A stretch of 64,000 bases of DNA from an uncultured Candidatus Saccharibacteria bacterium. GTDB taxonomy: Bacteria; Patescibacteriota; Minisyncoccia; Phycocordibacterales; UBA9973. A program made the position numbers and the translations under genes. Of the stretch, positions 34,339-50,051 are shown piece by piece (the first letter of the stretch is position 1; each line of letters opens with the position of its first letter). The notes under the pieces are model-generated. The model worked only from the letters and a program-made list of their open reading frames with translations, ran no database searches and was not told the DNA's origin. The stretch spans positions 7,759-71,758 of the forward strand of contig CAZNJI010000005.1 of the NCBI GenBank assembly GCA_964573395.1, read 5' to 3'.

Positions 34339-34611
34339 AACGGTATCACAAACGATGCTATAATCATCGGGCATTTTTAAAATGCTTAGTTCTTTATGTA
34401 TTAATATTCCCCTGTAGCTTGCGGTGGAGTGAGGCTTGGGATGGGACCCAAGCTGCAAGACCTTTTGAGATAGAATTGAGCATGCGAAAATTATATCCAA
34501 AAGGTGTACAGCTCCTGTAAGGAGGTCGCCGAGGCGACTGCCTACCGCGTAACAATTTATTTTGGCAATCATTAATGATGGTTACCAAATAGAACGTTAC
34601 AAAAAAAATAT

Positions 34612-34976
34612 TCCCCTGTAGCTCAGCGGTAGAGCAGTCGCCTGTAACATGAACAATGTTCAAATAGCAGCTTCCCGATCGAAAGACGGGTCGAAAAACG
34701 AAGTGAATTGACTGGAAATCCTGATCACACAGGATAATCAGCAGCCAAGCCCAGCCGTGAATCCAATAAGTTATTGAACTCACAACTGGGAAGGTTCAGA
34801 GACTATCTCGAAAGAGAGTACTCTCAGCCGTATTTTGTTTATAAAAAAATACGGCTAGGCGGAAGCGCTTCGCACCTTCCCTTTTTATTAAGAATGGTGA
34901 TGATATAGTCCATACCCGCAGTAATGCGAGAATATATGTAAGCGATTGGTCGTAGGTTCGAATCCTACCGGGGGAG
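34612..34976 (+). tRNA. tRNA-Asn(GUU) interrupted in the anticodon loop (between positions 35/36) by a ~293-nt intron-like insert (34646-34938)
   Basis: 5' exon: tcccctg-ta-gctc-agcggta-gagc-a-gtcgc-cugu. 3' exon: uaa-gcgat-tggtc-gtagg-ttcgaat-cctac-cggggga-g. Acceptor 7/7 paired (with U6-G67), and the G73 discriminator is typical of tRNA-Asn. The insert ends in G and contains CAGCCAAG and AGACUA P7-like motifs. Confidence 0.55.
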
Positions 34977-36641
34977 CAAAGTCGAACAAACATCCCTGAA
35001 AATAGGATTTTGTTCCGAAACATCAATGATATTTTCAGGTTCGAACTGTATGTTCTTCTGTTTTGCCGCACTTAGTCCATCAATTAGAGTTTGAAACTCT
35101 TCTGCGTTGGTAATACTCATTTTTTCTTCATTCCAGATAAGGTTCGATTTAAACTTCTTCAAAACAACTCGTTTAGCCTTGGTATCATCTGAAGAAAGAA
35201 CATCCACGAAAGATTGTGTTAAATCAACAATTTCACGCATTCGTATTGACCAATCCTGTCTTTGTATTGATTGCGTTTTAAGCTCAGCAACTTCCCTATC
35301 AATTTTTTCAGCATCTTTTTTGTAATCATCGGGAGAAGTTACACCATCGTTTAAATACTGTCGTGCTCGGTCCTTGCGTGCAAGAAGCTGTTCAAGGTGA
35401 CTTTTTCTTCCTTGTTCAATCGTTACAATGTGCTCTACTTCTCTATCTTTCATTTCTTGAATATTTCTCCTGCACCAATCCGCTAAAGCTGGCGATAGTT
35501 GAAGATTTTCCTTAACGTAGCTGATTAAGTAGTCAGTAATACAAGATTCTTCAATATATCGAGCTTTGAGTTTTTTCTTTCTACGACTGACGTTGTAATA
35601 GTAATGGTATGAGAGGTATTTAGGGCTCTTAATTTCTGCAAGTGTTTTGTTGCATTTAGGGCAACAGTCCTTGTTCTGGTAGGAGAATTTATATTTGCAC
35701 TCGCAAATTAATTGAAGCTTTATATCTGGACCAATAAATTCACCGTAAGGAGATTTAATAAAACCACTATAAGGAGTTAAGTGCTCTTTTGTCTTTGGAA
35801 CACTTCTATCTCCAAGCATTCTGCGTACCTTGTAATGTTCTGCCTCGGTTATCATTCGAGGTAATTCTGGAGCAAGCTCATATCGTTCTCCTCCATAGTA
35901 AAAGAAGCCTGCAAAAATAGGGTCTTTCAAAATTTCATAAATACGTGAGTAAGTAATAAATTTCCCACCAATTCTTTTACTCTTCCGTGTTGTGAACTTA
36001 ACTTCATTTACTGCCCACTCATAGAGCTGTGTTCCGGAATAGCTTCCGGAAAGAAACATACTGAACATCTGTTTGATAATGTTAAACCGATCCTCATCTA
36101 CTAACCACTTCCTATTTCCCTTTTCTTCGCTTCGATCATTTTTAAACCCAAGAGCCGCAAGACCATGTGGGTATCCCATGCTAGCTTTCTTTGCCTGCCC
36201 TCGTTTTACGTTTACCGAAAGATCTCGACTAAACTGATTAGCTGAACCAAATTCAACTGACATAAGGAGTGCATTTTCGTTTGGAAGATATACTTTAGTA
36301 GGAGTAATAATTGCTTTGATGATTCCTTTTTGAAGTAAGTCTATTATGAGCCCTCCATCAACCATGTTTCGAGCAAGACGGTCCAATTTCCAGCAGATAA
36401 TTGCATTGATTTTTCCCTCATGTAGGTCTTTAATCATTCGCTTATAAATCTCACGCTCTCCGGCAAAATGTGCCGATTTTGCTTCTTCATACAATTCTGA
36501 CTTCACTATTTCCCAATATGAAATTAGACGCTCTGCCTCTTCCTTTTGGGCTGGAATTGAAAGGACCTGTTTTTCTTCAGATTCTTGCGATTTCCTACAA
36601 TAAATTCCTGGAATTAAATCTTTTATTTGGTTCCTGTCCAT
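34965..36641 (-). CDS. Large serine recombinase (site-specific integrase)
   Basis: Resolvase catalytic domain (IYCRKSQESEEKQ..S, KLDRLARN), a recombinase domain, and a Zn-ribbon CECKYK..CCPKC. The last 4 codons overlap the tRNA-Asn T-arm/acceptor. Confidence 0.9.
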   Translation of the reverse strand: MDRNQIKDLIPGIYCRKSQESEEKQVLSIPAQKEEAERLISYWEIVKSELYEEAKSAHFAGEREIYKRMIKDLHEGKINAIICWKLDRLARNMVDGGLIIDLLQKGIIKAIITPTKVYLPNENALLMSVEFGSANQFSRDLSVNVKRGQAKKASMGYPHGLAALGFKNDRSEEKGNRKWLVDEDRFNIIKQMFSMFLSGSYSGTQLYEWAVNEVKFTTRKSKRIGGKFITYSRIYEILKDPIFAGFFYYGGERYELAPELPRMITEAEHYKVRRMLGDRSVPKTKEHLTPYSGFIKSPYGEFIGPDIKLQLICECKYKFSYQNKDCCPKCNKTLAEIKSPKYLSYHYYYNVSRRKKKLKARYIEESCITDYLISYVKENLQLSPALADWCRRNIQEMKDREVEHIVTIEQGRKSHLEQLLARKDRARQYLNDGVTSPDDYKKDAEKIDREVAELKTQSIQRQDWSIRMREIVDLTQSFVDVLSSDDTKAKRVVLKKFKSNLIWNEEKMSITNAEEFQTLIDGLSAAKQKNIQFEPENIIDVSEQNPIFRDVCSTLLPR

Positions 36642-37009
36642 AATTGGTTATCTATATTATTTTAACTCATTTTTACGTAGCACCCGACCTTTCTGCCTAT
36701 AATGCATGGCATACCGATAATTTATGTAACAATCTAGGTATAAATACTGACGGCCTCTGCCCTAGAACTCCTGCATATGGTTCATTCTCTGAAGTTCCCT
36801 CTCTTAGGCATCATATTTATTGACCATATGAGGTGCTTATTAATGGGCTGGGTGCGGTGTAGGTCGTCGAAACGCATTATTCCCAGCTTTCACATAAACA
36901 CCCCATGTAGCCTTCATTTTCGTGTACATTGACCAATGTACCTTATTAAAGCGGTGTCTTTTTATCGCGAGTATTCACCAAAGTTCGCTGTGTAGATTGA
37001 ATTGTCGAA

Positions 37010-37225
37010 TCATTTTTTTTCCTGTTTAATAGACTCAACAAATAATGTAAGTAGAAAATCACCGATATTATTTATATCTGTATCAGATAGTTTTTGTGCG
37101 CCAGAATGACCTATTTCGTTTTGTAAGACAAAACGTAAATCATCAATCGCTTTTTGACTTAATCTTCTTATCTCTTCCACTGTTGTGTGCCTATTAAATA
37201 AACACAGAACAAAAAAGCCGAGCAC
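37010..37225 (-). CDS. Hypothetical small protein
   Basis: ORF followed by terminator 37211-37252 (aaaaaagccgagc..gctcggctttttt). Confidence 0.3.
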   Translation of the reverse strand: MLGFFVLCLFNRHTTVEEIRRLSQKAIDDLRFVLQNEIGHSGAQKLSDTDINNIGDFLLTLFVESIKQEKK

Positions 37226-37514
37226 CTAATATTAGGTTGTCTCGGCTTTTTTGTAAGGGAATACAACCTAGGTTAAATTAGGTTATATTCCCTTAGAGAA
37301 ATAAGGAAACGTTGCACTGTTCTATAACTCGAATCGCTGTTTCTTGATGGTCACATAAAGCGCCCTCACAAGTTGCTAGAATTTGACTTTAAAAGTTCTG
37401 TAGCAAAACACCCACCACAACTGTAAGGTATTGGAGTACATATTGTTGTGAGGGATGTTTTACTCTCCAATACCTAATTTTATTTTAGTAAATAAAAATC
37501 AAATTGTCTATAAG

Positions 37515-37544: not shown

Positions 37545-37691
37545 TTAATCCTCAAAACCACCTAATAAAGCGATTATTATTCCCATAACAACAAGTGAAG
37601 CAATCGCTGTCCAGAAACCGCCCATTAATAATGCAATGATAAAAACAATTACGGCTAATATTCTCATGAATATATGAATAAAAAACTTCAT
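37545..37691 (-). CDS. Tiny hydrophobic protein (48 aa, below track cutoff)
   Basis: Manual translation: MKFFIHIFMRILAVIVFIIALLMGGFWTAIASLVVMGIIIALLGGFED. Confidence 0.3.
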   Translation of the reverse strand: MKFFIHIFMRILAVIVFIIALLMGGFWTAIASLVVMGIIIALLGGFED

Positions 37692-37693
37692 TT

Positions 37694-37924
37694 TTAATCT
37701 TTCTTAACCAAACTATATTCCTTCGGTTTCTTTCCAGTAATCTTATGAATTACTTTATTAGCGATAGTACATCCAATTACTACAGCAATGATTAAAGGTA
37801 TAAGTCCTTGAACAATAAGACCATTAACAATACCTATTACAATCAAAACAATAAATAACCCAACAATATAAGCAATGATTATTCTTCCTGTACTAGGCTT
37901 CTTAATATTTAACTCTTCATTCAT
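37694..37924 (-). CDS. Small membrane protein (2 TM)
   Basis: 76-aa ORF adjacent to the tiny hydrophobic ORF. Confidence 0.4.
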   Translation of the reverse strand: MNEELNIKKPSTGRIIIAYIVGLFIVLIVIGIVNGLIVQGLIPLIIAVVIGCTIANKVIHKITGKKPKEYSLVKKD

Positions 37925-38303
37925 AGTTTAATTTTTTGTTTAAAAACAATAAAACATTCTTTTAATAATTAAATGGGTTTTTGTATATAAAACGCAAAAA
38001 GCCCAACACGAAGGTGGTAGCTTGCGCTACCCATACCAGTTTCCCGGTATGACCAGTGACGGCAGACCCTTCGATGTTGGGTTCTTTGCACGTCACTGGT
38101 TTTTCTTCACCATGCCAGCCCTAGGGGCTGGTTTAGGCTACTTCGCTAAGTATTACACGAAAATATGAAGTTTTCTACAGATAGGTTTAAAAACCCAAAA
38201 ACCCAAGAAATCCATATTTTCTTAGGTAGATAAGAGTCCGGTTTTTAAACCGGAAAACCCGATATTTTGGTTTAAAAACCAAAAAAACAATAACCCTTAA
38301 AAA

Positions 38304-38319
38304 TTGATTTAGAAATCAA
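38304..38319. promoter_or_regulatory. Palindromic site TTGATTTAGAAATCAA (copy 2), 36 bp upstream of the 38356 operon
   Basis: Exact repeat of the 37515 site. Confidence 0.4.
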
Positions 38320-38355
38320 TTAATCAGAAATTGGCTTGTAAACACAAATATAGCT

Positions 38356-39273
38356 ATGATGCCAAATATGGAAAACTCTCCCACCCCTAAAACAATGTTT
38401 ACTGATACATTTCCTGATGATATTACGTCTGACGAAGAATTAGATGTTATAAAAGCTCAATATCCAGATTACGATGATTATTATGTGGCGAGTGGTTCCA
38501 TTAAGGAACGTAGAGAAAGTTTTGATGCAATGTATCAAATATACGCTCCTTATGCCGATAAACACTTTCTTTCCGATCTAAAAAAGCATTTCCATGAACG
38601 AACATGGGAAATGTATATTGGATATACCCTAATAAAAAATGGTGTCTCATTTACATCCACAAATAAAGGACCAGATATTCTTATTGAAACACCTGAAGGG
38701 AAAATATGGATTGAAGCTGTTGTTTGTAACAGTGGAGATGGCCCAGATCGTGTCCCAGCTATGATATATGGTGTAGCCTCAGATGTACCCGATGATGAAA
38801 TGATTATCAGAATGGCAAATAGCCTTGATGCCAAATTTAAAAAATATCAAAAATATATTAATGAAGATATTGTGTCAGTAGAAGATAAATTAATCATTGC
38901 TGTAAACGCCGGTATTTTTAGCCACGTAGTTGATGGAGATATGCCACTTATTCTAAAAGCAATTTTTGCTATCGGATTCCGAACATTATCATTACCAATC
39001 GACGGAAAAGGACCAGTAAAACCAGGGATCTCGACTAGAAATTTTATTGAAAAGAAAAATGGAAGCAAGGTTGCAACCACTTTCTTTTTAGAAAAAGAAC
39101 ATGCTTCAATTAGTGCTGTTTTATATACCAGTAGAACAGTGCTTAATCAAGATGAGCCAGCTGGGACTAATATAATGGTAGTTCGTAATCCAATAGCTAC
39201 TAATCCTCTCCCGGATGATGCGTTCCCATTTATGCATCAAATTATTACTAAAGGAGGCATTATAGAATTATGA
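38356..39273 (+). CDS. Hypothetical protein (possible PD-(D/E)xK-like nuclease), first gene of a 3-gene operon
   Basis: 305 aa with GPDILIETPEGKIWIEAVV resembling a D..ExK core. Its stop overlaps the next start (ATGA). Confidence 0.45.
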   Translation: MMPNMENSPTPKTMFTDTFPDDITSDEELDVIKAQYPDYDDYYVASGSIKERRESFDAMYQIYAPYADKHFLSDLKKHFHERTWEMYIGYTLIKNGVSFTSTNKGPDILIETPEGKIWIEAVVCNSGDGPDRVPAMIYGVASDVPDDEMIIRMANSLDAKFKKYQKYINEDIVSVEDKLIIAVNAGIFSHVVDGDMPLILKAIFAIGFRTLSLPIDGKGPVKPGISTRNFIEKKNGSKVATTFFLEKEHASISAVLYTSRTVLNQDEPAGTNIMVVRNPIATNPLPDDAFPFMHQIITKGGIIEL

Positions 39274-40268
39274 AAACCTGCATTTATTGTAGATCGCAGA
39301 ATCAATCTTTATTTAAAGGGGTTGAGCATCTTATACCCCAAAGTTTTGGTACTTTCAGCTCTGAGACTCCAACGTTAAAATGTGTTTGTGATGAGTGCAA
39401 TGCTTTCTTTGCAAAAGAACTCGACCAAATACTTGCTCGTGACAGCTGGGAAGGTGTAGAGAGATACAAAAAAGGAATTAAATCCAGAGAACAAAGACCT
39501 ATTAAGAGACTAAAATTTAGTCTCGAAAATACCCCAGAAATGGGCGAATTTGGCGGAATGGTTTTTGAAGGTGTTGATGCTACTACAGGAAAATTACTAC
39601 ATCCGAAAGGGCAATTTCATATAAAAAACATTAAAACTAAAAAATTTGATGTCTTCTTTACAGATGCAATAAAAAATATAAAACTTGATGATGAAACGTA
39701 TGGAGTAAAAGGCACGAGAGAAACAAAAATATTTGCAAATTCTGAAGAAGAACACCAAGCTGTTTTTGATGAAGTAAGAAAAATTATTCCGACTTATAAA
39801 ATAAAAGAAAAATTTCAACCTCCATTTATTCAAGGTAGAAAAGATGATGAAGTAATTGAACTTCCAATTTGGATTGAGGGAACTATTGATCATCCTATAA
39901 AAAGAGGATTAATAAAGATTCTTCTAAATTTTTCAGCTTACTATATTGGAAATGAAGAAGTTCTTAAGTCGGAATGGGATAAAGCAAGAGACTACGTTAG
40001 ACTTAATTCAGAACCAATCTTGGGTAAAGCTGATACTAAACCTTTCTGGGGAGATGAAACAGAAGTAATGCGTCTCCCAAATGATAGCTTTAATATTCTT
40101 GTTGAGAATAAAGGTAAAGATGTAATAGGAAAAATCCAAATATATAATTTTTATACCCACACCTTTATTCTCGCTGAGAATCACAGTATTCCTATAGGAA
40201 AAGAAAAAGCTATGCGCTTTACTAAAGGAAAACCTCCATACCGCGCAGAAAAAAGAACAGTGTTTTAA
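39270..40268 (+). CDS. HNH endonuclease-domain protein
   Basis: N-terminal CIYCRS..FKGVEHLIPQSFG HNH motif plus a second Cys pair CVCDEC. Confidence 0.65.
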   Translation: MKTCIYCRSQNQSLFKGVEHLIPQSFGTFSSETPTLKCVCDECNAFFAKELDQILARDSWEGVERYKKGIKSREQRPIKRLKFSLENTPEMGEFGGMVFEGVDATTGKLLHPKGQFHIKNIKTKKFDVFFTDAIKNIKLDDETYGVKGTRETKIFANSEEEHQAVFDEVRKIIPTYKIKEKFQPPFIQGRKDDEVIELPIWIEGTIDHPIKRGLIKILLNFSAYYIGNEEVLKSEWDKARDYVRLNSEPILGKADTKPFWGDETEVMRLPNDSFNILVENKGKDVIGKIQIYNFYTHTFILAENHSIPIGKEKAMRFTKGKPPYRAEKRTVF

Positions 40269-40302
40269 ATATTAATTAAAAACCACCTTTTTAGTTATTT
40301 TT

Positions 40303-40980
40303 ATGAAGCTACTAGAAATATTTAATACTCGGGAATTAGCGACAATAGTATGGGTCATTATTTTATTTGTATATCTTATCCGAAAACCAGAAATTCGCTC
40401 TAGTTTACTGCGATTTTTAAAAAGTGTTTTTAAATTATGGAAAATAGTGCTTAGCATGATTATCTACATCATTTTCTGTATTTTTATTTTGCACAAAATG
40501 TCGTTCTGGAATATGGATTTACTTAAATTAACAATTTTTTGGTTTTTTGGTTGGGCTTCTGTAATGTTTATAAACCTCAACGATATACAAAAAAATAAAA
40601 GTTACCTCAAAAAAGTACTAGTTAATATTTTAGGGTTAACAGTTGTTATTTCATTTATCACAAATTTCTATACATTTCCCTTTATAGCTGAACTGATCCT
40701 TTTACCAATCATTACGATCCTTTTAGTATTCACAGTTATGCCTCAAATTAAAGGCAACCTAAAAGTAAATAGACTCATAAACCAAGTACTAATTGTTTTT
40801 GGACTTATTGTATTAGCTATTAATATAAAGAGAGTAATATGTAATTTCCAAACTTTCTCCTCTATGAACACTCTACTAGAATTTCTTCTACCAATAATCC
40901 TATCCTTAATGTTTTTACCGTATCTTTATTTACTATTCCTTTATTCAGAATGTGAACAAAAGAAAATAAAGGGTAAATAA
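40303..40980 (+). CDS. Polytopic membrane protein (about 6 TM), probably co-transcribed with the HNH gene
   Basis: Hydrophobic throughout; 34-nt gap from the upstream gene. Confidence 0.5.
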   Translation: MKLLEIFNTRELATIVWVIILFVYLIRKPEIRSSLLRFLKSVFKLWKIVLSMIIYIIFCIFILHKMSFWNMDLLKLTIFWFFGWASVMFINLNDIQKNKSYLKKVLVNILGLTVVISFITNFYTFPFIAELILLPIITILLVFTVMPQIKGNLKVNRLINQVLIVFGLIVLAINIKRVICNFQTFSSMNTLLEFLLPIILSLMFLPYLYLLFLYSECEQKKIKGK

Positions 40981-41039: not shown

Positions 41040-41801
41040 ATGCCAACAGAGGCTCATTTTACGCTATACCTCGATGAAACTGGGGATCATCTTCTTTACT
41101 CAGAGGAAGAATACCTTCAAAATTCAGAACTAGAAAGTCATTGTACTCTCTTAGGCTACATCCTTCAAAATGACGTTAAGCCTATTGTAAAAGAAGGACT
41201 CAAAGCCTTGAAAAGAGAATTTTGGAAGACGGATGAAGTTATATTACATAGTGTAAAGATACGTCATAAACAAGGATGCTTCGCTTTGTTTCATTACATA
41301 CCTGAAATGTATGAGAAATTTAAGGTTCGATTAATGGAGATTATTAAACTATCTAACCCCGTGATTGTATGTAGTTCACTAGACAAGCGATTATGGATTA
41401 AAAAATATCCAAGGAAATACTACTTTAAAGACGATCCTTATGATCAGGCATTTATTTTTCTTCTGGAAAAATATGCGCGTTTTCTTAACGATCAGAAATA
41501 CGACAAAGTGGTTGGTCGAATATCTGTTGAAAAAAGAGATCCCGCCAGAGACAAATCGCTAAGAGAGACATATACGAGCGTAAAGAGAAATGGTACTCAA
41601 TTTCGCAATAAAAACTTTTTCGATAAACTCTCGGATAAAATGGATTTTGACAGTAAAGGATTCAATATTCCCGGTTTGCAATTGAGTGACTATTGTTCAT
41701 ATCCTTTTTATATAAACCATAAATTTCCTACTCGAGATAATAAATTATATGAACTACTTAAGACATATATTTATAACTGTGGACATAAAAAATGGCCCTA
41801 A
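41040..41801 (+). CDS. DUF3800-like protein
   Basis: N-terminal LYLDETGD resembles the DUF3800 signature (hydrophobic-YIDESG); 253 aa. Confidence 0.5.
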   Translation: MPTEAHFTLYLDETGDHLLYSEEEYLQNSELESHCTLLGYILQNDVKPIVKEGLKALKREFWKTDEVILHSVKIRHKQGCFALFHYIPEMYEKFKVRLMEIIKLSNPVIVCSSLDKRLWIKKYPRKYYFKDDPYDQAFIFLLEKYARFLNDQKYDKVVGRISVEKRDPARDKSLRETYTSVKRNGTQFRNKNFFDKLSDKMDFDSKGFNIPGLQLSDYCSYPFYINHKFPTRDNKLYELLKTYIYNCGHKKWP

Positions 41802-41944
41802 AAAACACAAAAGAGCTCGTATTGAGCTCTTTTGTGACCCCTCATTCGAAGGGAAAATATCACTGAATGATACCTTTTAATTATATATTAAAGAACAATC
41901 TTGTATACATAGTTATTAACAGTCCATCAACGTTCGGAACAAAC

Positions 41945-43885: not shown

Positions 43886-44521
43886 ATGAAATACAACGAG
43901 TTTAACCTCGGTCAGATTGAAGCTGTCTTCAACAAGCTTGGAGGAGTATACGGTGTAAAACGTTTTCTCTCTGGTCAAACGGAAGTAAGAGCAATTCCTA
44001 AAAGCTTTCTCTGGTGGAAAAAAGTTACTATAGGAAAATTTAATTCTATAGGAGAAGTGTGGCGGGCGCTTACTGAAAAAGGTGTGGAATTAAAAGAAGG
44101 TATTCCATATGGCTCCAAAAAATGTGCCCTACGACATCGCTCGGTAACTATGTTAAACAGCCCATTGTTTACCCTAGCCAAGGTAGAAGAAGAAATCGAA
44201 CTTGTATCAGTAAAATTAAAAGATTTAGGTTTCGTAGATAGTGGTTTTGTACCAAAAAAGGAAGTTCTTAAATGGGCTTCACAAATTGGATTAGAACCCT
44301 GTCCTGCAGAAGTAGTAATTGACCTGCTTTTAAATCACCAACTCGAAGAAACAAGAAGAAAAGATGTTCAAATTGTGATGGAACCTATACGTGTCGCAGA
44401 TGACCATCTGAACTTCAGGTTAAGAGAAGATGGTGGGTGTGGGGCGTTACTTTTAGATTGGGATGTTTCTGATAAATTTTCCGACTTTGAGTGTTACGTA
44501 TTTCGTTTAGTAAACAAATAA
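43886..44521 (+). CDS. Hypothetical protein (cassette gene)
   Basis: 211-aa ORF followed by terminator hairpin cctcacgca..tgtgagg-tttttt (44531-44562). Confidence 0.5.
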   Translation: MKYNEFNLGQIEAVFNKLGGVYGVKRFLSGQTEVRAIPKSFLWWKKVTIGKFNSIGEVWRALTEKGVELKEGIPYGSKKCALRHRSVTMLNSPLFTLAKVEEEIELVSVKLKDLGFVDSGFVPKKEVLKWASQIGLEPCPAEVVIDLLLNHQLEETRRKDVQIVMEPIRVADDHLNFRLREDGGCGALLLDWDVSDKFSDFECYVFRLVNK

Positions 44522-44562
44522 CAAAACAAGACCTCACGCAATAACTATGTGTGAGGTTTTTT

Positions 44563-44669
44563 AGTTCTGAAGTATCATCAAAGGAAATACCTCAAAAATC
44601 TTAGAAACTTCTAAATCTCTTTTAATTGCAACCCAGTTAAGAGTTCTGAACTCGTCCACGAGAGGGAGC
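44563..44669 (+). repeat. Intergenic repeat R2
   Basis: Same architecture as R1. Confidence 0.7.
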
Positions 44670-44783
44670 CATTTTTTGAAGCTTATTTCGTAACAGTTAA
44701 TTTTGATACCCAAATAGGGTTCAGAACTTTACATAAGAAAAGCCCGCCATTACTGACGAGCTTTTTTTGTTTTTAATCGTTGA

Positions 44784-45140
44784 TTACTTGGTTTGCAACT
44801 TCCACACTTTTGATGTTTCCATTACATTACCTTTCCTTGTGCGTGTATTGTAATAAAATGCACGCTTCTCGGATTTACCCTCATCAACTGAGTTAGGTAA
44901 TCCTTGAATAAGGAACTCTCCAATCCAACTTTCACCTGAACCATCTTCAGGACCTGCGAGATGCACGGTAGCATTAAACTTTTTCCCAATATCCATTGTG
45001 CTTTTTATAGCGCTGGTGTTAATGGAGAACTGGATTGTCTTTTTATCAAAAAGACTGGCTTGTAGGTCATACTTCGATGGACCATTTGTGATTGCACATA
45101 ATCCTTCAGGAAGTAGTGCTGTTTTGGATGTGATTACCAT
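44784..45140 (-). CDS. Hypothetical protein (cassette gene)
   Basis: 118-aa ORF. Confidence 0.4.
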   Translation of the reverse strand: MVITSKTALLPEGLCAITNGPSKYDLQASLFDKKTIQFSINTSAIKSTMDIGKKFNATVHLAGPEDGSGESWIGEFLIQGLPNSVDEGKSEKRAFYYNTRTRKGNVMETSKVWKLQTK

Positions 45141-45263
45141 AACGATAATTGTTTATTTTGAAGAACAGTGAGGTTACGACCCTCGATTACGTTGCTGAAT
45201 AACTCAGTCTTGTTTACATTGTAGCATACTACAAGATAAATGTCAATATATAGCCAATTTACT

Positions 45264-45370
45264 AGTTCTGAAGTGCCATCATCGGAAACATCTCAAAAAT
45301 CTTAGAAAACTCCAATTCCCTTTTGATAGCAACCCAGTTAAGGGTTCTGAACTCGTCCACTAAAGGGAGC
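45264..45370 (+). repeat. Intergenic repeat R3
   Basis: Same architecture as R1. Followed by a TTGACT-17-TATTAT promoter at 45377-45405. Confidence 0.7.
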
Positions 45371-45526
45371 TAATACTTGACTTTTCTATATTTTTATGCT
45401 ATTATATATTTGTAATAGTACTTTGAGATACTTGGTTATTTAATGTTGATTTTGTTGGGTTTTCTGTGTTCCCTGCTTGGGATTATAGACAACTCAATAA
45501 TTTCTAACAATTAAATAAACAAAAAA

Positions 45527-46000
45527 ATGAACAGTTATCAAAAAAGTGAAAGGGTTACAAAAATCCTTTCTATATTTTCAATTGTGTCGTTTGTTATCGC
45601 CATTATTTCGTTTGTAATTTATGCCTTCGTTGGACGAAAAACATTCGACACTATCGCCGTGACTGGTTTAACAGCGTTCATGCTGCCCATTCTGGTGCTG
45701 CAAGTCGCCATGCCAGCAAACTTCCACATCTTTGGAACAAAAGGTATAGGGATCCCCTGGTCGCTATTTTTCTTCCTGTTTATATTCCCGTTCGCTGACC
45801 TGTGGTTCTTCTCTGGGTTAAGCACTTTATTCAACATTATTCCTGATTATCACTCTGTGATGAACGGATCAATGAAAGAACTGGTGCGTAATCAAGCCAT
45901 GACAGAAGCATGGACATACATCGGGAGTATATATGTGGGACTAATTAGTATCGGCCTGCTGTTAAGAAAAAAACAAAAAGAAAAAATTGTTCTGGGATAA
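45527..46000 (+). CDS. Hypothetical membrane protein (cassette gene)
   Basis: 157 aa with 4 predicted TM. Terminator at 46021-46051. Confidence 0.45.
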   Translation: MNSYQKSERVTKILSIFSIVSFVIAIISFVIYAFVGRKTFDTIAVTGLTAFMLPILVLQVAMPANFHIFGTKGIGIPWSLFFFLFIFPFADLWFFSGLSTLFNIIPDYHSVMNGSMKELVRNQAMTEAWTYIGSIYVGLISIGLLLRKKQKEKIVLG

Positions 46001-46054
46001 CAAACAACCCGCCAACACGGAAACCCGTTCGTTGAGCGGGTTTTCTTTTTGTTT

Positions 46055-46161
46055 AGTTCTGAAGTACTACCACTGGCAACAACTCAAAAATCTTTGAAAA
46101 CTCCAAATCTCTTTTGATGGCAGTCCAATTCAGAGTTCTGAACTTGTCCAAGAGAGGGAGC
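46055..46161 (+). repeat. Intergenic repeat R4
   Basis: Same architecture as R1. Confidence 0.7.
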
Positions 46162-46549
46162 AAAGTAAAAAAGACCTTTTCAGGTCTTAGGTTGATACCC
46201 GCTCCATTTAGTTTTACTTCTTGCATTTAGCACGATGACGCGGACAAGAAAACTGCTTGGAACTAAAAAAACTTCGCGAACAGTTAAAAGTCCCTCTATT
46301 TTATAATAGTCGGAGCGACTGCCTCAACTAAAAACAAACTTTTGCTTTAACTATAGGAGAGTTTGAACCTATAGCATCCCCAAGGATTAACTTTGCTTGG
46401 AGAACCACAAATTTTTAAGCGGATACCGTTCTTGGTATGTATTCTCTCTTCTTCATTATACTAGCACGTTCCCCCCCCCGCCGAATGGCAGGATAAACTC
46501 CAATGTTCAGAGCTCCTAAAAATCTTAAACCAGCAACACTGCGTTGGCC

Positions 46550-47476
46550 CTATTTTGAGAGGATGCTATTTCCTTCATTCATGTAATCAAGCGCTTCAGC
46601 ATAGAGCGGAATTGCTGTCTGGATATCGCCCAAATTTTTATACTCATCAGCCTTTCCTTTCATCTCTACAGACTGGAGGTGCAGCTTTTGAGAACGATCT
46701 AAAATGTCAGATTCATACTTTCTATTTTTTGTTTTTTCTGCATATTCTCGCTGTTCTTTTTCTATGCTTTCAATAAGAACTTGAATTTCCTTATCGCTAT
46801 CTTCTATTCCCTCTTCCGTAAAGTCTTTAATGATCTGCTCAGCCTCATCTCGCACCGATTCTTCTTCTGCAATAAGTTTTCCGCGAAGAACATACAGTGT
46901 TTCAGAATCATCGCCGTCTTCATCTACTTCCTCTAGGATTTCCACGTGCGTAGAAAGAGTGGTTCCTAGTTCAGATGAAAGCGTCAGCGCCTTTCCTTCT
47001 TCTCCGGAATCCTCCAATTTCTGAATATGGCCTGAAGCTTTTTTCCGTAAGAGAGTAGTTTGTTCAACTAGTGAGGTAATAACCTCGTCTTGGTCGGTTT
47101 CGGATAGGCGCTCTTTTTTAACCACCTTTTCAGCCTCTTCGAGCCTTCGGTCAACAAGTTTCGTTGCGTGCTTAATTTTTGATTCAGTTGAAAGAGAGAA
47201 TGCTTCAGTAACCTTCTCATTAACTCGAGTCTTCACTGGATACAAATAGTCTCCCGGGATAGTTTGCTCTGCAGCAGCTGAAACCGACCCCACCGTTACC
47301 ACAAGGAGTAGCGCGACCACAACACCCGATCGGAAAAAATGATGCGCCCAATAGCGCGCATGGCGCGTACCGCGTTTTTGAGAACCTGCCATGGTAATAG
47401 AGGCCTTCATTTGGCTTTTTTCAAGACGACTCAGTCGTATGTGTTCTTTGGTTGTATGAAATTTATGGTTTTCCAT
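46550..47476 (-). CDS. Putative anti-sigma factor (single TM, acidic coiled-coil extracytoplasmic domain)
   Basis: Overlaps the 3' end of the ECF sigma gene. TM HHFFRSGVVVALLLVVTVGSV. Confidence 0.5.
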   Translation of the reverse strand: MENHKFHTTKEHIRLSRLEKSQMKASITMAGSQKRGTRHARYWAHHFFRSGVVVALLLVVTVGSVSAAAEQTIPGDYLYPVKTRVNEKVTEAFSLSTESKIKHATKLVDRRLEEAEKVVKKERLSETDQDEVITSLVEQTTLLRKKASGHIQKLEDSGEEGKALTLSSELGTTLSTHVEILEEVDEDGDDSETLYVLRGKLIAEEESVRDEAEQIIKDFTEEGIEDSDKEIQVLIESIEKEQREYAEKTKNRKYESDILDRSQKLHLQSVEMKGKADEYKNLGDIQTAIPLYAEALDYMNEGNSILSK

Positions 47477-47987
47477 GGTGTCCTCTTTGTTCTATTATTT
47501 TCCTGAGCCTGTGCAATGCTCGGTGAATTCTCACTGATACAACATTTGCTGTCTCATGCAGCAAGTCAGCTATTTCTTTTACTTCATATTCATCAACATA
47601 TCGCAATGTGAGCACCTCACGATACTGAGGAGGAAGATGCTGAAATATTTCAATAATCTCTTGCGCTTCCCGCTTCAGCAGTTCTTGTTCCCCATCGGTT
47701 CCTGGCTCTAATCCTTCTTTTTGCAAATCTTCGATTGAGACACTTTCTTTTCTATCCCGCCACTCATTTACAAACAAATTATGAGCGATAGTATAGAGAA
47801 ATTTTTTTGGGTATTCAATGTGTTCTCCTTTTTGGAGCGTTTTCCACAATCGCATAAAAACCTCTTGCGTCAGCTCCTTTGCCCGAGCCCGATCTGAGAT
47901 TTTAAAAGAAATATGGCGGAAAATTGCATCCGAATATGCTTCGAAGTACTCGTTGAAACGTTCATGCTGGACTTGCTGTTCATTCAT
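47463..47987 (-). CDS. ECF-type RNA polymerase sigma-70 factor
   Basis: Region 2 EVFMRLWKTL..YTIAHNLFVNEWR and region 4 VLTLRYVDEYEVKEIADLLHETANVVSVRIHRAL. Confidence 0.85.
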   Translation of the reverse strand: MNEQQVQHERFNEYFEAYSDAIFRHISFKISDRARAKELTQEVFMRLWKTLQKGEHIEYPKKFLYTIAHNLFVNEWRDRKESVSIEDLQKEGLEPGTDGEQELLKREAQEIIEIFQHLPPQYREVLTLRYVDEYEVKEIADLLHETANVVSVRIHRALHRLRKIIEQRGHHGKP

Positions 47988-48131
47988 ACTGACACGGGGG
48001 CGAATCGATTCTTACACCCTATAGCATACACCACTACTGTAAGATTATGCTTTTTGAGGTGTCAGTAGTTATGTACCTAGAAATAATAATTATTACCAGG
48101 AAAATATTATTCATTAAATGAGAAAAGTATT

Positions 48132-50051
48132 ATGAAAATGAAACTAGCATTACCGCTGTCTGGCATACTTGCATTTCTGCTGTTATTCATCGGAATACCG
48201 AACGCAGACGCCTATATGCACACAGCGACATTAAAAACCGGGTCAAGAGGCTCGCAAGTTGTCGAGCTGCAAAAGACCCTGAACGCCAACGGATACACCG
48301 TATCGTTCTCTGGGGCCGGCGCTCCGGGAATGGAAACTTCCTATTTCGGCATAAAAACAAAAACTGCCGTTATGTCATTCCAGTCAGCTCAAGGGCTTGT
48401 CTCGGATGGCATTGTGGGGCCGATAACTGGAACACGCTTAGCGGCACTGGGTACACCAGTGGGGCCTATCCCAAATCTTCCTCTGGGATGTAGCTCGATT
48501 ATCGGGTACAGCCCGCTCACCGGAGTGAAATGTGATAGCACAACCACTACTCCTCCAGTAACCCAGCCTGATCTTTCAGGCAATAACGGAGTGATTCACC
48601 AGTTCAGCGAACTTTCTCCGTACAGCAACGAGGAAGTAGCTGAAGGGCAAAAAGATATTCGCGTAGCTGGATTTGAAATTGAAGCTTCACGTGATGGAGA
48701 CATAGAAATTCAATCAGTGCGCCTGAGCTTCGACCCGGCGGGAAATACCGGCTCGAATCGCCTCGATCGGTATATCGACTCAGTATCTCTGTGGATGGAC
48801 GACACACGAATCGCAACTGCTCGGGTAGATGATTTCTCACGAGGCAGCGGCAACGTGTACTCTCGAACAATGTCTATCAATAAAGCTATTGTTCGATCCG
48901 GCCAGGAACAGAAATTTTATATTACCGTTGATGCAGTACGAAACCTTGACTCTGCAGATATTAGCGGAGACTCATGGACAGTTGATGTTGAGAGTGTTCG
49001 CTACAAAGACGGTCTCGGTGTAGTAACCACCGACAACAGAACGGGCGATATGAACAGCATGGATGTGCCGATTAACTTCGTCACCTTCAGTTCTGCGGCA
49101 GACACGAACCTTAAAATCAGCCTTGCTTCAGATAACCCCGAAGAAGGATTGGTCATTGTCAGAGACAATAGAACGACAGATGGTGTACTTCTATTGAAAG
49201 GTGCGCTCAAACTCGAAGGTACTTCAGATGTAACCATAGAAGAGCTACCGGTAACCTTTACGGTTTCTGGAACTGCTGCAAATGTTGACGCAGTGCTAAA
49301 CTCAGCAACTCTTATTATTGGCAACGAAGAATACACCGAACGGGTTTCTACCACCGGAACAACCGCAACCGTAATCTTCGATAGACTGGATTATGAAATG
49401 CGTGCCGGAAGAACGGTTGATTTCAGCATTGTTGCTGAAATGAACAGACTTCGACCAGGCATATTCGAAGAGGGAGATACTATCAAGGCTGAAATATCTT
49501 CAGCAAACAGAGACCTCATCGAAGTTGAAAATGAGCGCGGAGATGATCTTTCTAATGCAGATGAAAAATCAGGTACCGCTATCGGAAAAACGATGGAGTT
49601 GCGCAAAAGCGGTATCATGCTCTCTCTTGTGTCAACGAATACCTCATCAGTTTCTGGCGATTCTGCAAACGATGACATCGGAACGTTCAGAATTAAGTTC
49701 AAAGTAAAAGCGCTCGGTGAAGATGCATACATTTCTTCCCTGGGCACTACTGACGGACTTACCTATCTCGTCGATAAAGCAGGAGAAATCGTAGCCTCAG
49801 GAACAACGGCAATAATCACTAACAATACCAGTTCTTCTCTCACTCCAGCGGGTAACTACCGCATTAATGAAGGAGAAGAAGAAACGGTAGAAGTTATGAT
49901 TATGATCCAGCTTCCAGATGCAGGCACAGCCGGACTCTACCGAGGAAGTTTAACGGGGTTAAAATGGGATACTGACGACGATGCTACTCCCGACAATAAC
50001 TACACGTTCAATCTTGATCAATTCAGAACTCCTTATATGATATTAAACTAA
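48132..50051 (+). CDS. Secreted protein with an N-terminal peptidoglycan-binding (PG_binding_1-like) domain and a large beta-rich C-terminal region
   Basis: Signal peptide, then GSRGSQVVELQKTLNANGY..FGIKTKTAVMSFQSAQGLVSDGIVGPITGTRL. Confidence 0.55.
   Translation: MKMKLALPLSGILAFLLLFIGIPNADAYMHTATLKTGSRGSQVVELQKTLNANGYTVSFSGAGAPGMETSYFGIKTKTAVMSFQSAQGLVSDGIVGPITGTRLAALGTPVGPIPNLPLGCSSIIGYSPLTGVKCDSTTTTPPVTQPDLSGNNGVIHQFSELSPYSNEEVAEGQKDIRVAGFEIEASRDGDIEIQSVRLSFDPAGNTGSNRLDRYIDSVSLWMDDTRIATARVDDFSRGSGNVYSRTMSINKAIVRSGQEQKFYITVDAVRNLDSADISGDSWTVDVESVRYKDGLGVVTTDNRTGDMNSMDVPINFVTFSSAADTNLKISLASDNPEEGLVIVRDNRTTDGVLLLKGALKLEGTSDVTIEELPVTFTVSGTAANVDAVLNSATLIIGNEEYTERVSTTGTTATVIFDRLDYEMRAGRTVDFSIVAEMNRLRPGIFEEGDTIKAEISSANRDLIEVENERGDDLSNADEKSGTAIGKTMELRKSGIMLSLVSTNTSSVSGDSANDDIGTFRIKFKVKALGEDAYISSLGTTDGLTYLVDKAGEIVASGTTAIITNNTSSSLTPAGNYRINEGEEETVEVMIMIQLPDAGTAGLYRGSLTGLKWDTDDDATPDNNYTFNLDQFRTPYMILN

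Follow-up and report, generated by a model that had tools for sequence, protein, structure and literature searches.

Three open reading frames (ORFs) lie back to back on the plus strand between positions 38356 and 40980 of the window, by which we mean the whole 64,000-nucleotide stretch of contig CAZNJI010000005.1 from an uncultured Candidatus Saccharibacteria bacterium. Gene 1 encodes a predicted nuclease of the PD-(D/E)xK fold, gene 2 a predicted stand-alone HNH_5 nuclease, and gene 3 a polytopic membrane protein; gene 4, encoding a DUF3800 protein, follows on the same strand (Table 1). The TGA of gene 1 and the ATG of gene 2 share the sequence ATGA at 39270 to 39273, with a Shine-Dalgarno sequence (AAAGGAGG) about 13 nucleotides (nt) upstream, and 34 nt separate the stop of gene 2 from the start of gene 3. 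Because the relatives of gene 1 begin at the position of Met14 (MFTD...) in the family alignment, its true start may be 38395 instead of 38356. An earlier note on this DNA had read the three genes as an abortive-infection system combining nuclease and membrane effector. Much of its description stands: the three co-directional genes with their overlap and 34-nt gap, the 16-bp inverted repeat before them, the adjoining DUF3800-like gene, and the setting in a mobile island with defense-type cargo, evident from low G+C content, a recombinase, and PADLOC and Pfam matches. The proposed system does not. In our judgment, genes 1 to 4 are likely to be independent, exchangeable single-gene cassettes stacked in the cargo of the island, not a multicomponent system.

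Co-occurrence was assessed in 60 genomic loci carrying homologues of gene 1 (58 with more than 1.1 kb of upstream and 53 with more than 1.1 kb of downstream sequence), 80 metagenomic loci carrying homologues of gene 2 (about 58 to 60 with usable flanks), and 11 loci carrying homologues of gene 3 outside the window's own island, for a total of 151 other loci. Searches with tblastn, repeated with profile hidden Markov models on six-frame ORFs, gave the same outcome. A gene 2 homologue adjoins the gene 1 homologue in 1 of the 60 gene 1 loci (L002), and a gene 1 homologue adjoins the gene 2 homologue in 2 of the 80 gene 2 loci (L084 and L090). Homologues of gene 3 or gene 4 adjoin gene 1 homologues in none of the 60 loci, gene 3 homologues adjoin gene 2 homologues in none of the 80, and no gene 1 or gene 2 homologue was found beside the gene 3 homologues of the 11 remaining loci (0/151 overall). 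The full trio was recovered elsewhere only in L141, a Logan assembly of the same island sequence. The earlier note had named a failure of the three genes to co-occur outside this genome as evidence against its proposal; such a failure was found for the trio and likewise for gene 3, and very nearly for the pair of genes 1 and 2 (3/140). On this evidence the three-gene system, as proposed, is not a conserved entity.

It is thus very improbable that genes 1 to 3 constitute a single abortive-infection system, with the nucleases as sensing or cutting components and the membrane protein as the killing effector. The co-directional, tight packing of the genes, with an overlap, a short gap, and no internal terminator, would fit such a system, as would their location in a defense-type island; however, the small genomes of the Candidate Phyla Radiation (CPR) are normally tightly packed, and the close relatives of gene 3 pair with an HTH_3 gene of their own instead.

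In all three outside loci where homologues of genes 1 and 2 adjoin, the order is gene 2 and then gene 1, the reverse of that in the window, with gaps of 0 to 45 nt and 27 to 55% identity to the window proteins. Two observations weigh against complete independence of these genes, namely, their ATGA overlap in the window, which lies behind a good Shine-Dalgarno sequence, and the adjacency of their families in three other, diverged loci. Since three adjacencies exceed what random placement of two rare families would give, some synergy between genes 1 and 2 may exist. They might form a facultative two-nuclease module in which each nuclease works alone and the two cooperate when adjoining, for instance through cleavage of both strands or licensing of one by the other, but the rarity and reversed order of the pair make this quite unlikely, and the closest relatives of each gene occur without the other. 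P0002, a close homologue of gene 1 (77% identity), is part of a recombinase island, where its neighbors are small unrelated ORFs on one side and a 216-amino-acid (aa) ORF on the other. Homologues of gene 2 with 79, 73, and 70% identity (L061, L154, and L155, respectively) have an unrelated gene of 192 to 200 aa upstream, in the place of gene 1, and in L154 and L155 this gene even overlaps the gene 2 homologue.

Other neighbors of gene 2 are equally frequent, with a 240-aa family in six loci and a 192-aa family in three; clustering of all flanking ORFs revealed no conserved partner and placed the commonest neighbor family in 5 of the 80 loci. Such varied neighbors are the pattern expected of random stacking from a limited pool of island cargo. 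The 23 gene 1 loci closest to the window are mostly from metagenome-assembled genomes of Patescibacteria/CPR, and the others are mainly from Proteobacteria. No conserved neighbor of gene 1 was found in these 23 CPR-type loci, and the only neighbors of it that recur (in up to 10 of the 60 loci) are part of a single syntenic element shared by distant alphaproteobacterial loci.

The earlier note recognized no known system at this locus, but gene 1 matches the PADLOC-DB models of two single-gene systems: PD-T7-5 (PDLC04110; E value, 4.9e-15; 53.5 bits; residues 68 to 259 aligned with model positions 43 to 234 of 346) and PD-T7-1 (PDLC04073; E value, 1.6e-14; residues 67 to 262 aligned with model positions 150 to 344 of 452). 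The gene 1 homologue in L084 scores an E value of 1.2e-20 in PADLOC, and gene 1 also matches phrog_8571 of PHROGs (E value, 4.9e-26). Pfam gave no match for gene 1, and searches of PDB sequences with profiles of genes 1, 2, and 3 returned nothing with an E value below 0.5. A cluster look-up likewise gave neither names nor accessions for the proteins of the window. An AlphaFold model of gene 1 built on the family alignment (predicted local distance difference test [pLDDT], 90.8) appears to have a restriction endonuclease-like core, and a fold search with it led to PD-(D/E)xK nucleases. At close range the family comprises 24 proteins, whose invariant residues include E85, G105, P106, D107, I119, and E120. 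The last five lie in the GPDILIE...IWIE segment, in agreement with the earlier suggestion that this segment is PD-(D/E)xK-like, as are the PADLOC matches and the fold search.

PD-T7-1 and PD-T7-5 originate from a selection in Escherichia coli (Vassallo et al., 2022; PMC9519451), a study in which five single-protein systems contain a putative DNase domain only, and a review table lists both as PD(D/E)xK nuclease systems (PMC10952713). Like them, gene 1 occurs as a single gene carried by mobile elements, with neither a conserved partner nor an adjoining methylase. Distant plasmid homologues of gene 1 occur in Acinetobacter and Erwinia, and a literature search returned papers on each of these genera that mention PD-T7-5. 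In contrast to PD-T7-5 and PD-T7-1, the CPR family of gene 1 has 67 residues at the N terminus and 45 at the C terminus that are its own; its identity to the proteobacterial relatives is 22 to 34%, and the host of gene 1 is probably a CPR bacterium. In five proteobacterial loci (L045, L048, L049, L052, and L060), a second, weaker gene 1-like segment lies about 600 to 1,600 nt downstream of the gene 1 homologue, which suggests tandem paralogues of a PD-T7-5-like gene.

It seems reasonably probable that gene 1 acts alone, as a DNase-type defense of the PD-(D/E)xK class comparable to PD-T7-5 and PD-T7-1. It would cleave phage DNA or the DNA of the infected cell, with E85, D107, and E120 as a putative metal-binding acidic triad. 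Two features count against this assignment. The lysine of the canonical (D/E)xK motif is missing two positions after E120, where V, A, or I is found instead, and the PADLOC match leaves nearly half of the PD-T7-5 model uncovered (about 55% is aligned), including its C-terminal 110 positions. Of the PD-T7-1 model the C-terminal 43% is covered and positions 1 to 149 are not. Since the alignments are confined to about 190 central residues, gene 1 is a distant relative rather than an orthologue of these systems.

Gene 2 matches the Pfam family HNH_5 (PF14279) over residues 4 to 56 (30.4 bits, against a gathering score of 27.5), and the residues C4, C7, H20, C40, C43, and N44 of its CxxC...H...CxxCN motif are invariant or at least 90% conserved in the family. 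The remaining residues, about 270, are conserved and confidently modeled (pLDDT, 89.8; predicted template modeling score, 0.86). Beyond the HNH core, no fold neighbor was found in the PDB or BFVD, which accords with the earlier description of an HNH motif followed by a long region with no recognizable partner domain, and no PADLOC v2 model covers the full-length protein. An exhaustive profile search, with clusters counted at 50% identity, yielded 2,145 representatives at E values of ≤1e-3, 970 at ≤1e-10, and 247 at ≤1e-30. Among the 150 matches listed, most are 320 to 360 aa long and align end to end, and the shorter ones match the profile in part. As judged from these sequences, the gene 2 family is a well-defined and uniform single-protein architecture of about 335 aa.

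Two known HNH systems were considered and rejected as assignments for gene 2. Like PtuB of the Septu system, gene 2 has an HNH_5 core, but the PADLOC matches of PtuB models to that core are weak (E values, 6e-4 to 3e-2), gene 2 carries its approximately 270 additional residues, and scans with Pfam, PADLOC, and NCBIfam found no PtuA-type ATPase among the island ORFs. The NCBIfam guided_IscB model scored 13.8 bits against a cutoff of 175, and RuvC is lacking; IscB moreover requires an omega RNA, and the only RNA near gene 2 is LOOT, on the opposite strand.

The genes flanking gene 2 homologues (pool, n = 39) include type II methylases and restriction enzymes, AbiV, TIR/ThsB-like, SAVED, Schlafen/AlbA_2, PDC-S39, and PDC-S66 proteins, and integrases. 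Because these neighbors are variable defense genes, gene 2 appears to reside in defense islands without a fixed partner. Near gene 2 homologues in six loci we observed the unannotated family of about 240 aa mentioned above, with an invariant PPDG...E-x-E-V-V-E-H motif (Table 1); this family is possibly another PD-(D/E)xK nuclease. PADLOC gave no match for it or for the 192-aa upstream family. An arrangement in which the HNH protein takes variable PD-(D/E)xK partners from one superfamily was rejected, since hhalign gave a 0.1% probability for the comparison of the 240-aa family with the gene 1 family.

By guilt of association, gene 2 is a candidate single-gene defense nuclease, and a defense role for it falls somewhat short of being probable. 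It would act alone as a His-Me (HNH_5) nuclease, and its C-terminal region would probably provide target recognition or control of activation. More tentatively, the family may represent an uncharacterized, widespread single-protein anti-phage nuclease whose C-terminal region would act in sensing or specificity. In a weaker form of this idea, gene 2 would work together with PD-T7-5-like nucleases that adjoin it. What speaks against a defense function is that gene 2 could instead be selfish. In that case it, and possibly gene 1, would be an addiction module that stabilizes the island or else a free-standing HNH endonuclease of the homing type. In favor of this reading, homing endonucleases often carry HNH domains (PMC5714182), the genomic surroundings of gene 2 vary widely across many lineages, and PHROGs gave a weak match (phrog_35254; E value, 4e-6) to the C-terminal part of the protein. 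The neighbors of gene 2, however, are mostly defense genes and integrases rather than conserved host genes, introns, or inteins; its structure has no significant match to viral proteins; and length and architecture are uniform over at least 247 clusters. A selfish role is improbable in our estimation.

Gene 3 has 19 relatives and no match in Pfam, PADLOC, PHROGs, NCBIfam, or the PDB. Kyte-Doolittle hydropathy supports the polytopic membrane protein of the earlier note, with about six or seven hydrophobic segments in place of about six. Homologues with 44 to 52% identity come after a small gene of 78 to 86 aa, which they overlap or abut and which encodes an HTH_3 domain in two of three contexts and has no domain match in the third. 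In these other serine-recombinase islands, the two genes run divergently to a gene for an N6_N4 DNA methylase. The layout resembles that of a controller protein and its restriction gene, except that a membrane protein with seven transmembrane segments replaces the restriction enzyme. More distant homologues of gene 3 occur in unrelated contexts. Gene 3 would be a functionally independent membrane protein whose closest relatives are probably under the control of their own small HTH gene; a defense role for it is rather doubtful.

Gene 4 matches Pfam DUF3800 (PF12686; 33.4 bits, against a cutoff of 21), and its translation contains an N-terminal YLDETGD and a C-terminal QLSD motif. Type VII retrons use this RNase H-like domain as their effector (PMC7736814). 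Gene 4 shares with those effectors the DUF3800 match and the DE and QxxD motifs. In contrast to type VII retrons, no reverse transcriptase domain was found in the scanned island ORFs and Rfam identified no retron msr/msd, LOOT being the sole structured RNA nearby. Gene 4 is probably an independent DUF3800 RNase H-like effector.

Within this island, genes 1 to 4 are probably cotranscribed, which would be a property of the island and not of a system. A terminator scan detected a strong hairpin just after gene 4 (Table 1) and no comparable plus-strand terminator anywhere from gene 1 to gene 4, so that cotranscription is plausible; the hairpin is likely the end of the transcription unit. A scan for sigma-70 promoters gave sites no more numerous than in shuffled sequences.

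The four genes belong to a low-G+C block from about 35 to 46.5 kb (G+C fraction, 0.29 to 0.37, compared with about 0.48 in the flanks) that opens with the gene for a large serine recombinase. Beside it, a group I intron (RF00028; 86.7 bits) splits a class I tRNA gene at 34560 to 34978, which ARAGORN missed. The 5' half of the tRNA lies at about 34610 to 34650, and the 3' half, ending in GCGATTGGTCGTAGGTTCGAATCCTACCGGGGGAGCA, extends to about 34978; its anticodon is probably that for Thr. Because the stop of the recombinase gene (34965) overlaps the 3' end of the tRNA, the island appears to have integrated at this intron-containing gene. Comparison of 34501 to 35100 with 44001 to 49000 by blastn revealed no convincing flanking direct repeats, as expected for a recombinase of the serine type. 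We propose an integrative island of about 11.5 kb (approximately 34.97 to 46.5 kb) that would be mobilized by the large serine recombinase, with the gene 1 and gene 2 cassettes and genes 3 and 4 stacked in its cargo region. Its low G+C content, tRNA-adjacent position, recombinase, and stacked variable defense-type genes are those of known defense islands of integrative elements; unlike known serine-recombinase islands, it has a LOOT RNA in its backbone and probably belongs to the CPR lineage, in which such islands are little described. Between the recombinase and the small ORFs, the noncoding stretches 36642 to 37000 and 37230 to 37470 are richer in G+C than the remainder of the island and include hairpins such as AAAAAAGCCGAGCACCTAATATTAGGTTGTCTCGGCTTTTTT (about 37214 to 37255). 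These stretches have no Rfam match and may be terminators or further island RNAs.

The LOOT RNA of the window lies directly upstream of two small membrane ORFs on the minus strand (37694 to 37924 and 37545 to 37691). LOOT was described from the OD1, OP11, and TM7 lineages. Together with the closest homologues of gene 1 and the named sources of several gene 2 homologues, it makes a CPR/Patescibacteria host probable. No functional description of LOOT was found in the literature available. Searches with Rfam and with a covariance model built in this analysis (R1), over the loci fetched for homologues of gene 1, 2, or 3, identified LOOT in 13 loci, in 9 of which a serine recombinase lies 0.45 to 7.5 kb away. 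LOOT recurs in the backbone of serine-recombinase islands of CPR-type contigs, and variable defense-type cargo, including gene 1 or gene 2 homologues, begins beside it. The adjoining position is occupied by a gene 1 homologue in two loci (L153 and L018) and by a gene 2 homologue in three (L079, L085, and L065), and its behavior is that of a slot for variable cargo. In most loci LOOT points the same way as the cargo; in the window and in L079 the two are divergent.

The inverted repeat before gene 1 is a 16-bp palindrome, TTGATTTAGAAATCAA, at 38304 to 38319, within a pair of 9-bp arms that extends to 38302 and 38321. An identical second copy, where 0.07 would be expected, indicates that the palindrome is more than a chance occurrence. 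The central AG is on the plus strand in each copy, and the two copies flank a 789-bp segment that contains LOOT and the two small membrane ORFs. No other fetched locus contains the palindrome except L141, a second assembly of this island. The copies could be operators of some regulator or sites of a site-specific recombinase. A second repeat, GGTTTAAAAACC, has three matches in the whole window, all between LOOT and gene 1; 3 of 100 shuffled sequences contain that many.

Table 1. Positions of genes, RNAs, and repeats in the window and of related features in other loci
Feature	Position	Strand	Remarks
Large serine recombinase	34965..36641	-	Pfam Resolvase, 1.2e-16; Recombinase, 6.4e-7
Second exact copy of 16-bp palindrome TTGATTTAGAAATCAA	37515..37530		0.07 matches expected
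LOOT RNA (Rfam RF03000)	38016..38139	-	84 bits (gathering score, 46.4); E value, 4.5e-15; divergent from gene 1
Three copies of GGTTTAAAAACC, alternating orientation	38184-38195, 38240-38251, 38269-38280		LOOT-gene 1 interval
Palindrome AATTGATTT-AG-AAATCAATT	38302..38321		35 nt upstream of gene 1; candidate operator
Gene 1, PD-T7-5/PD-T7-1-like, predicted PD-(D/E)xK-fold nuclease	38356..39273	+	305 aa
Gene 2, predicted stand-alone HNH_5 nuclease with conserved C-terminal region of ~270 aa	39270..40268	+	332 aa
Gene 3, polytopic membrane protein, ~6-7 transmembrane segments	40303..40980	+	225 aa; hydropathy
Gene 4, DUF3800 protein, RNase H-like defense-associated domain	41040..41801	+	Pfam
GC-rich hairpin after gene 4, 13-bp stem	41806..41836		Terminator scan; perfect palindromic stem, scored on minus strand
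LOOT copies	L015:3169-3294, L145:2308-2428, L065:3026-3145, L018:6101-6221, L085:3517-3645, L142:2234-2361, L004:9885-10005, L153:4743-4858, L003:9967-10093, L008:4137-4258, L155:1228-1358, L079:5783-5908		
PPDG family of ~240 aa	L070:3798-4505, L071:7029-7736, L082:6978-7730, L083:1160-1912, L154:2741-3475, L155:2584-3318		
Close gene 3 homologue with preceding gene of 78-86 aa	L142:4750-5720, L145:4740-5720, L147:4759-5696		

The comparison removes a false lead, in that there is no new three-component system of nucleases and membrane effector at this locus. The one component here that might prove new is the gene 2 family, and a large and uniform HNH family of this kind is a reasonable candidate for experimental defense screening. 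LOOT, an orphan RNA motif, gains a genomic context in serine-recombinase islands with a variable cargo slot. Finally, the presence of a PD-T7-5/PD-T7-1-like nuclease in the CPR/Patescibacteria widens the range of a kind of defense that has been validated only in E. coli.

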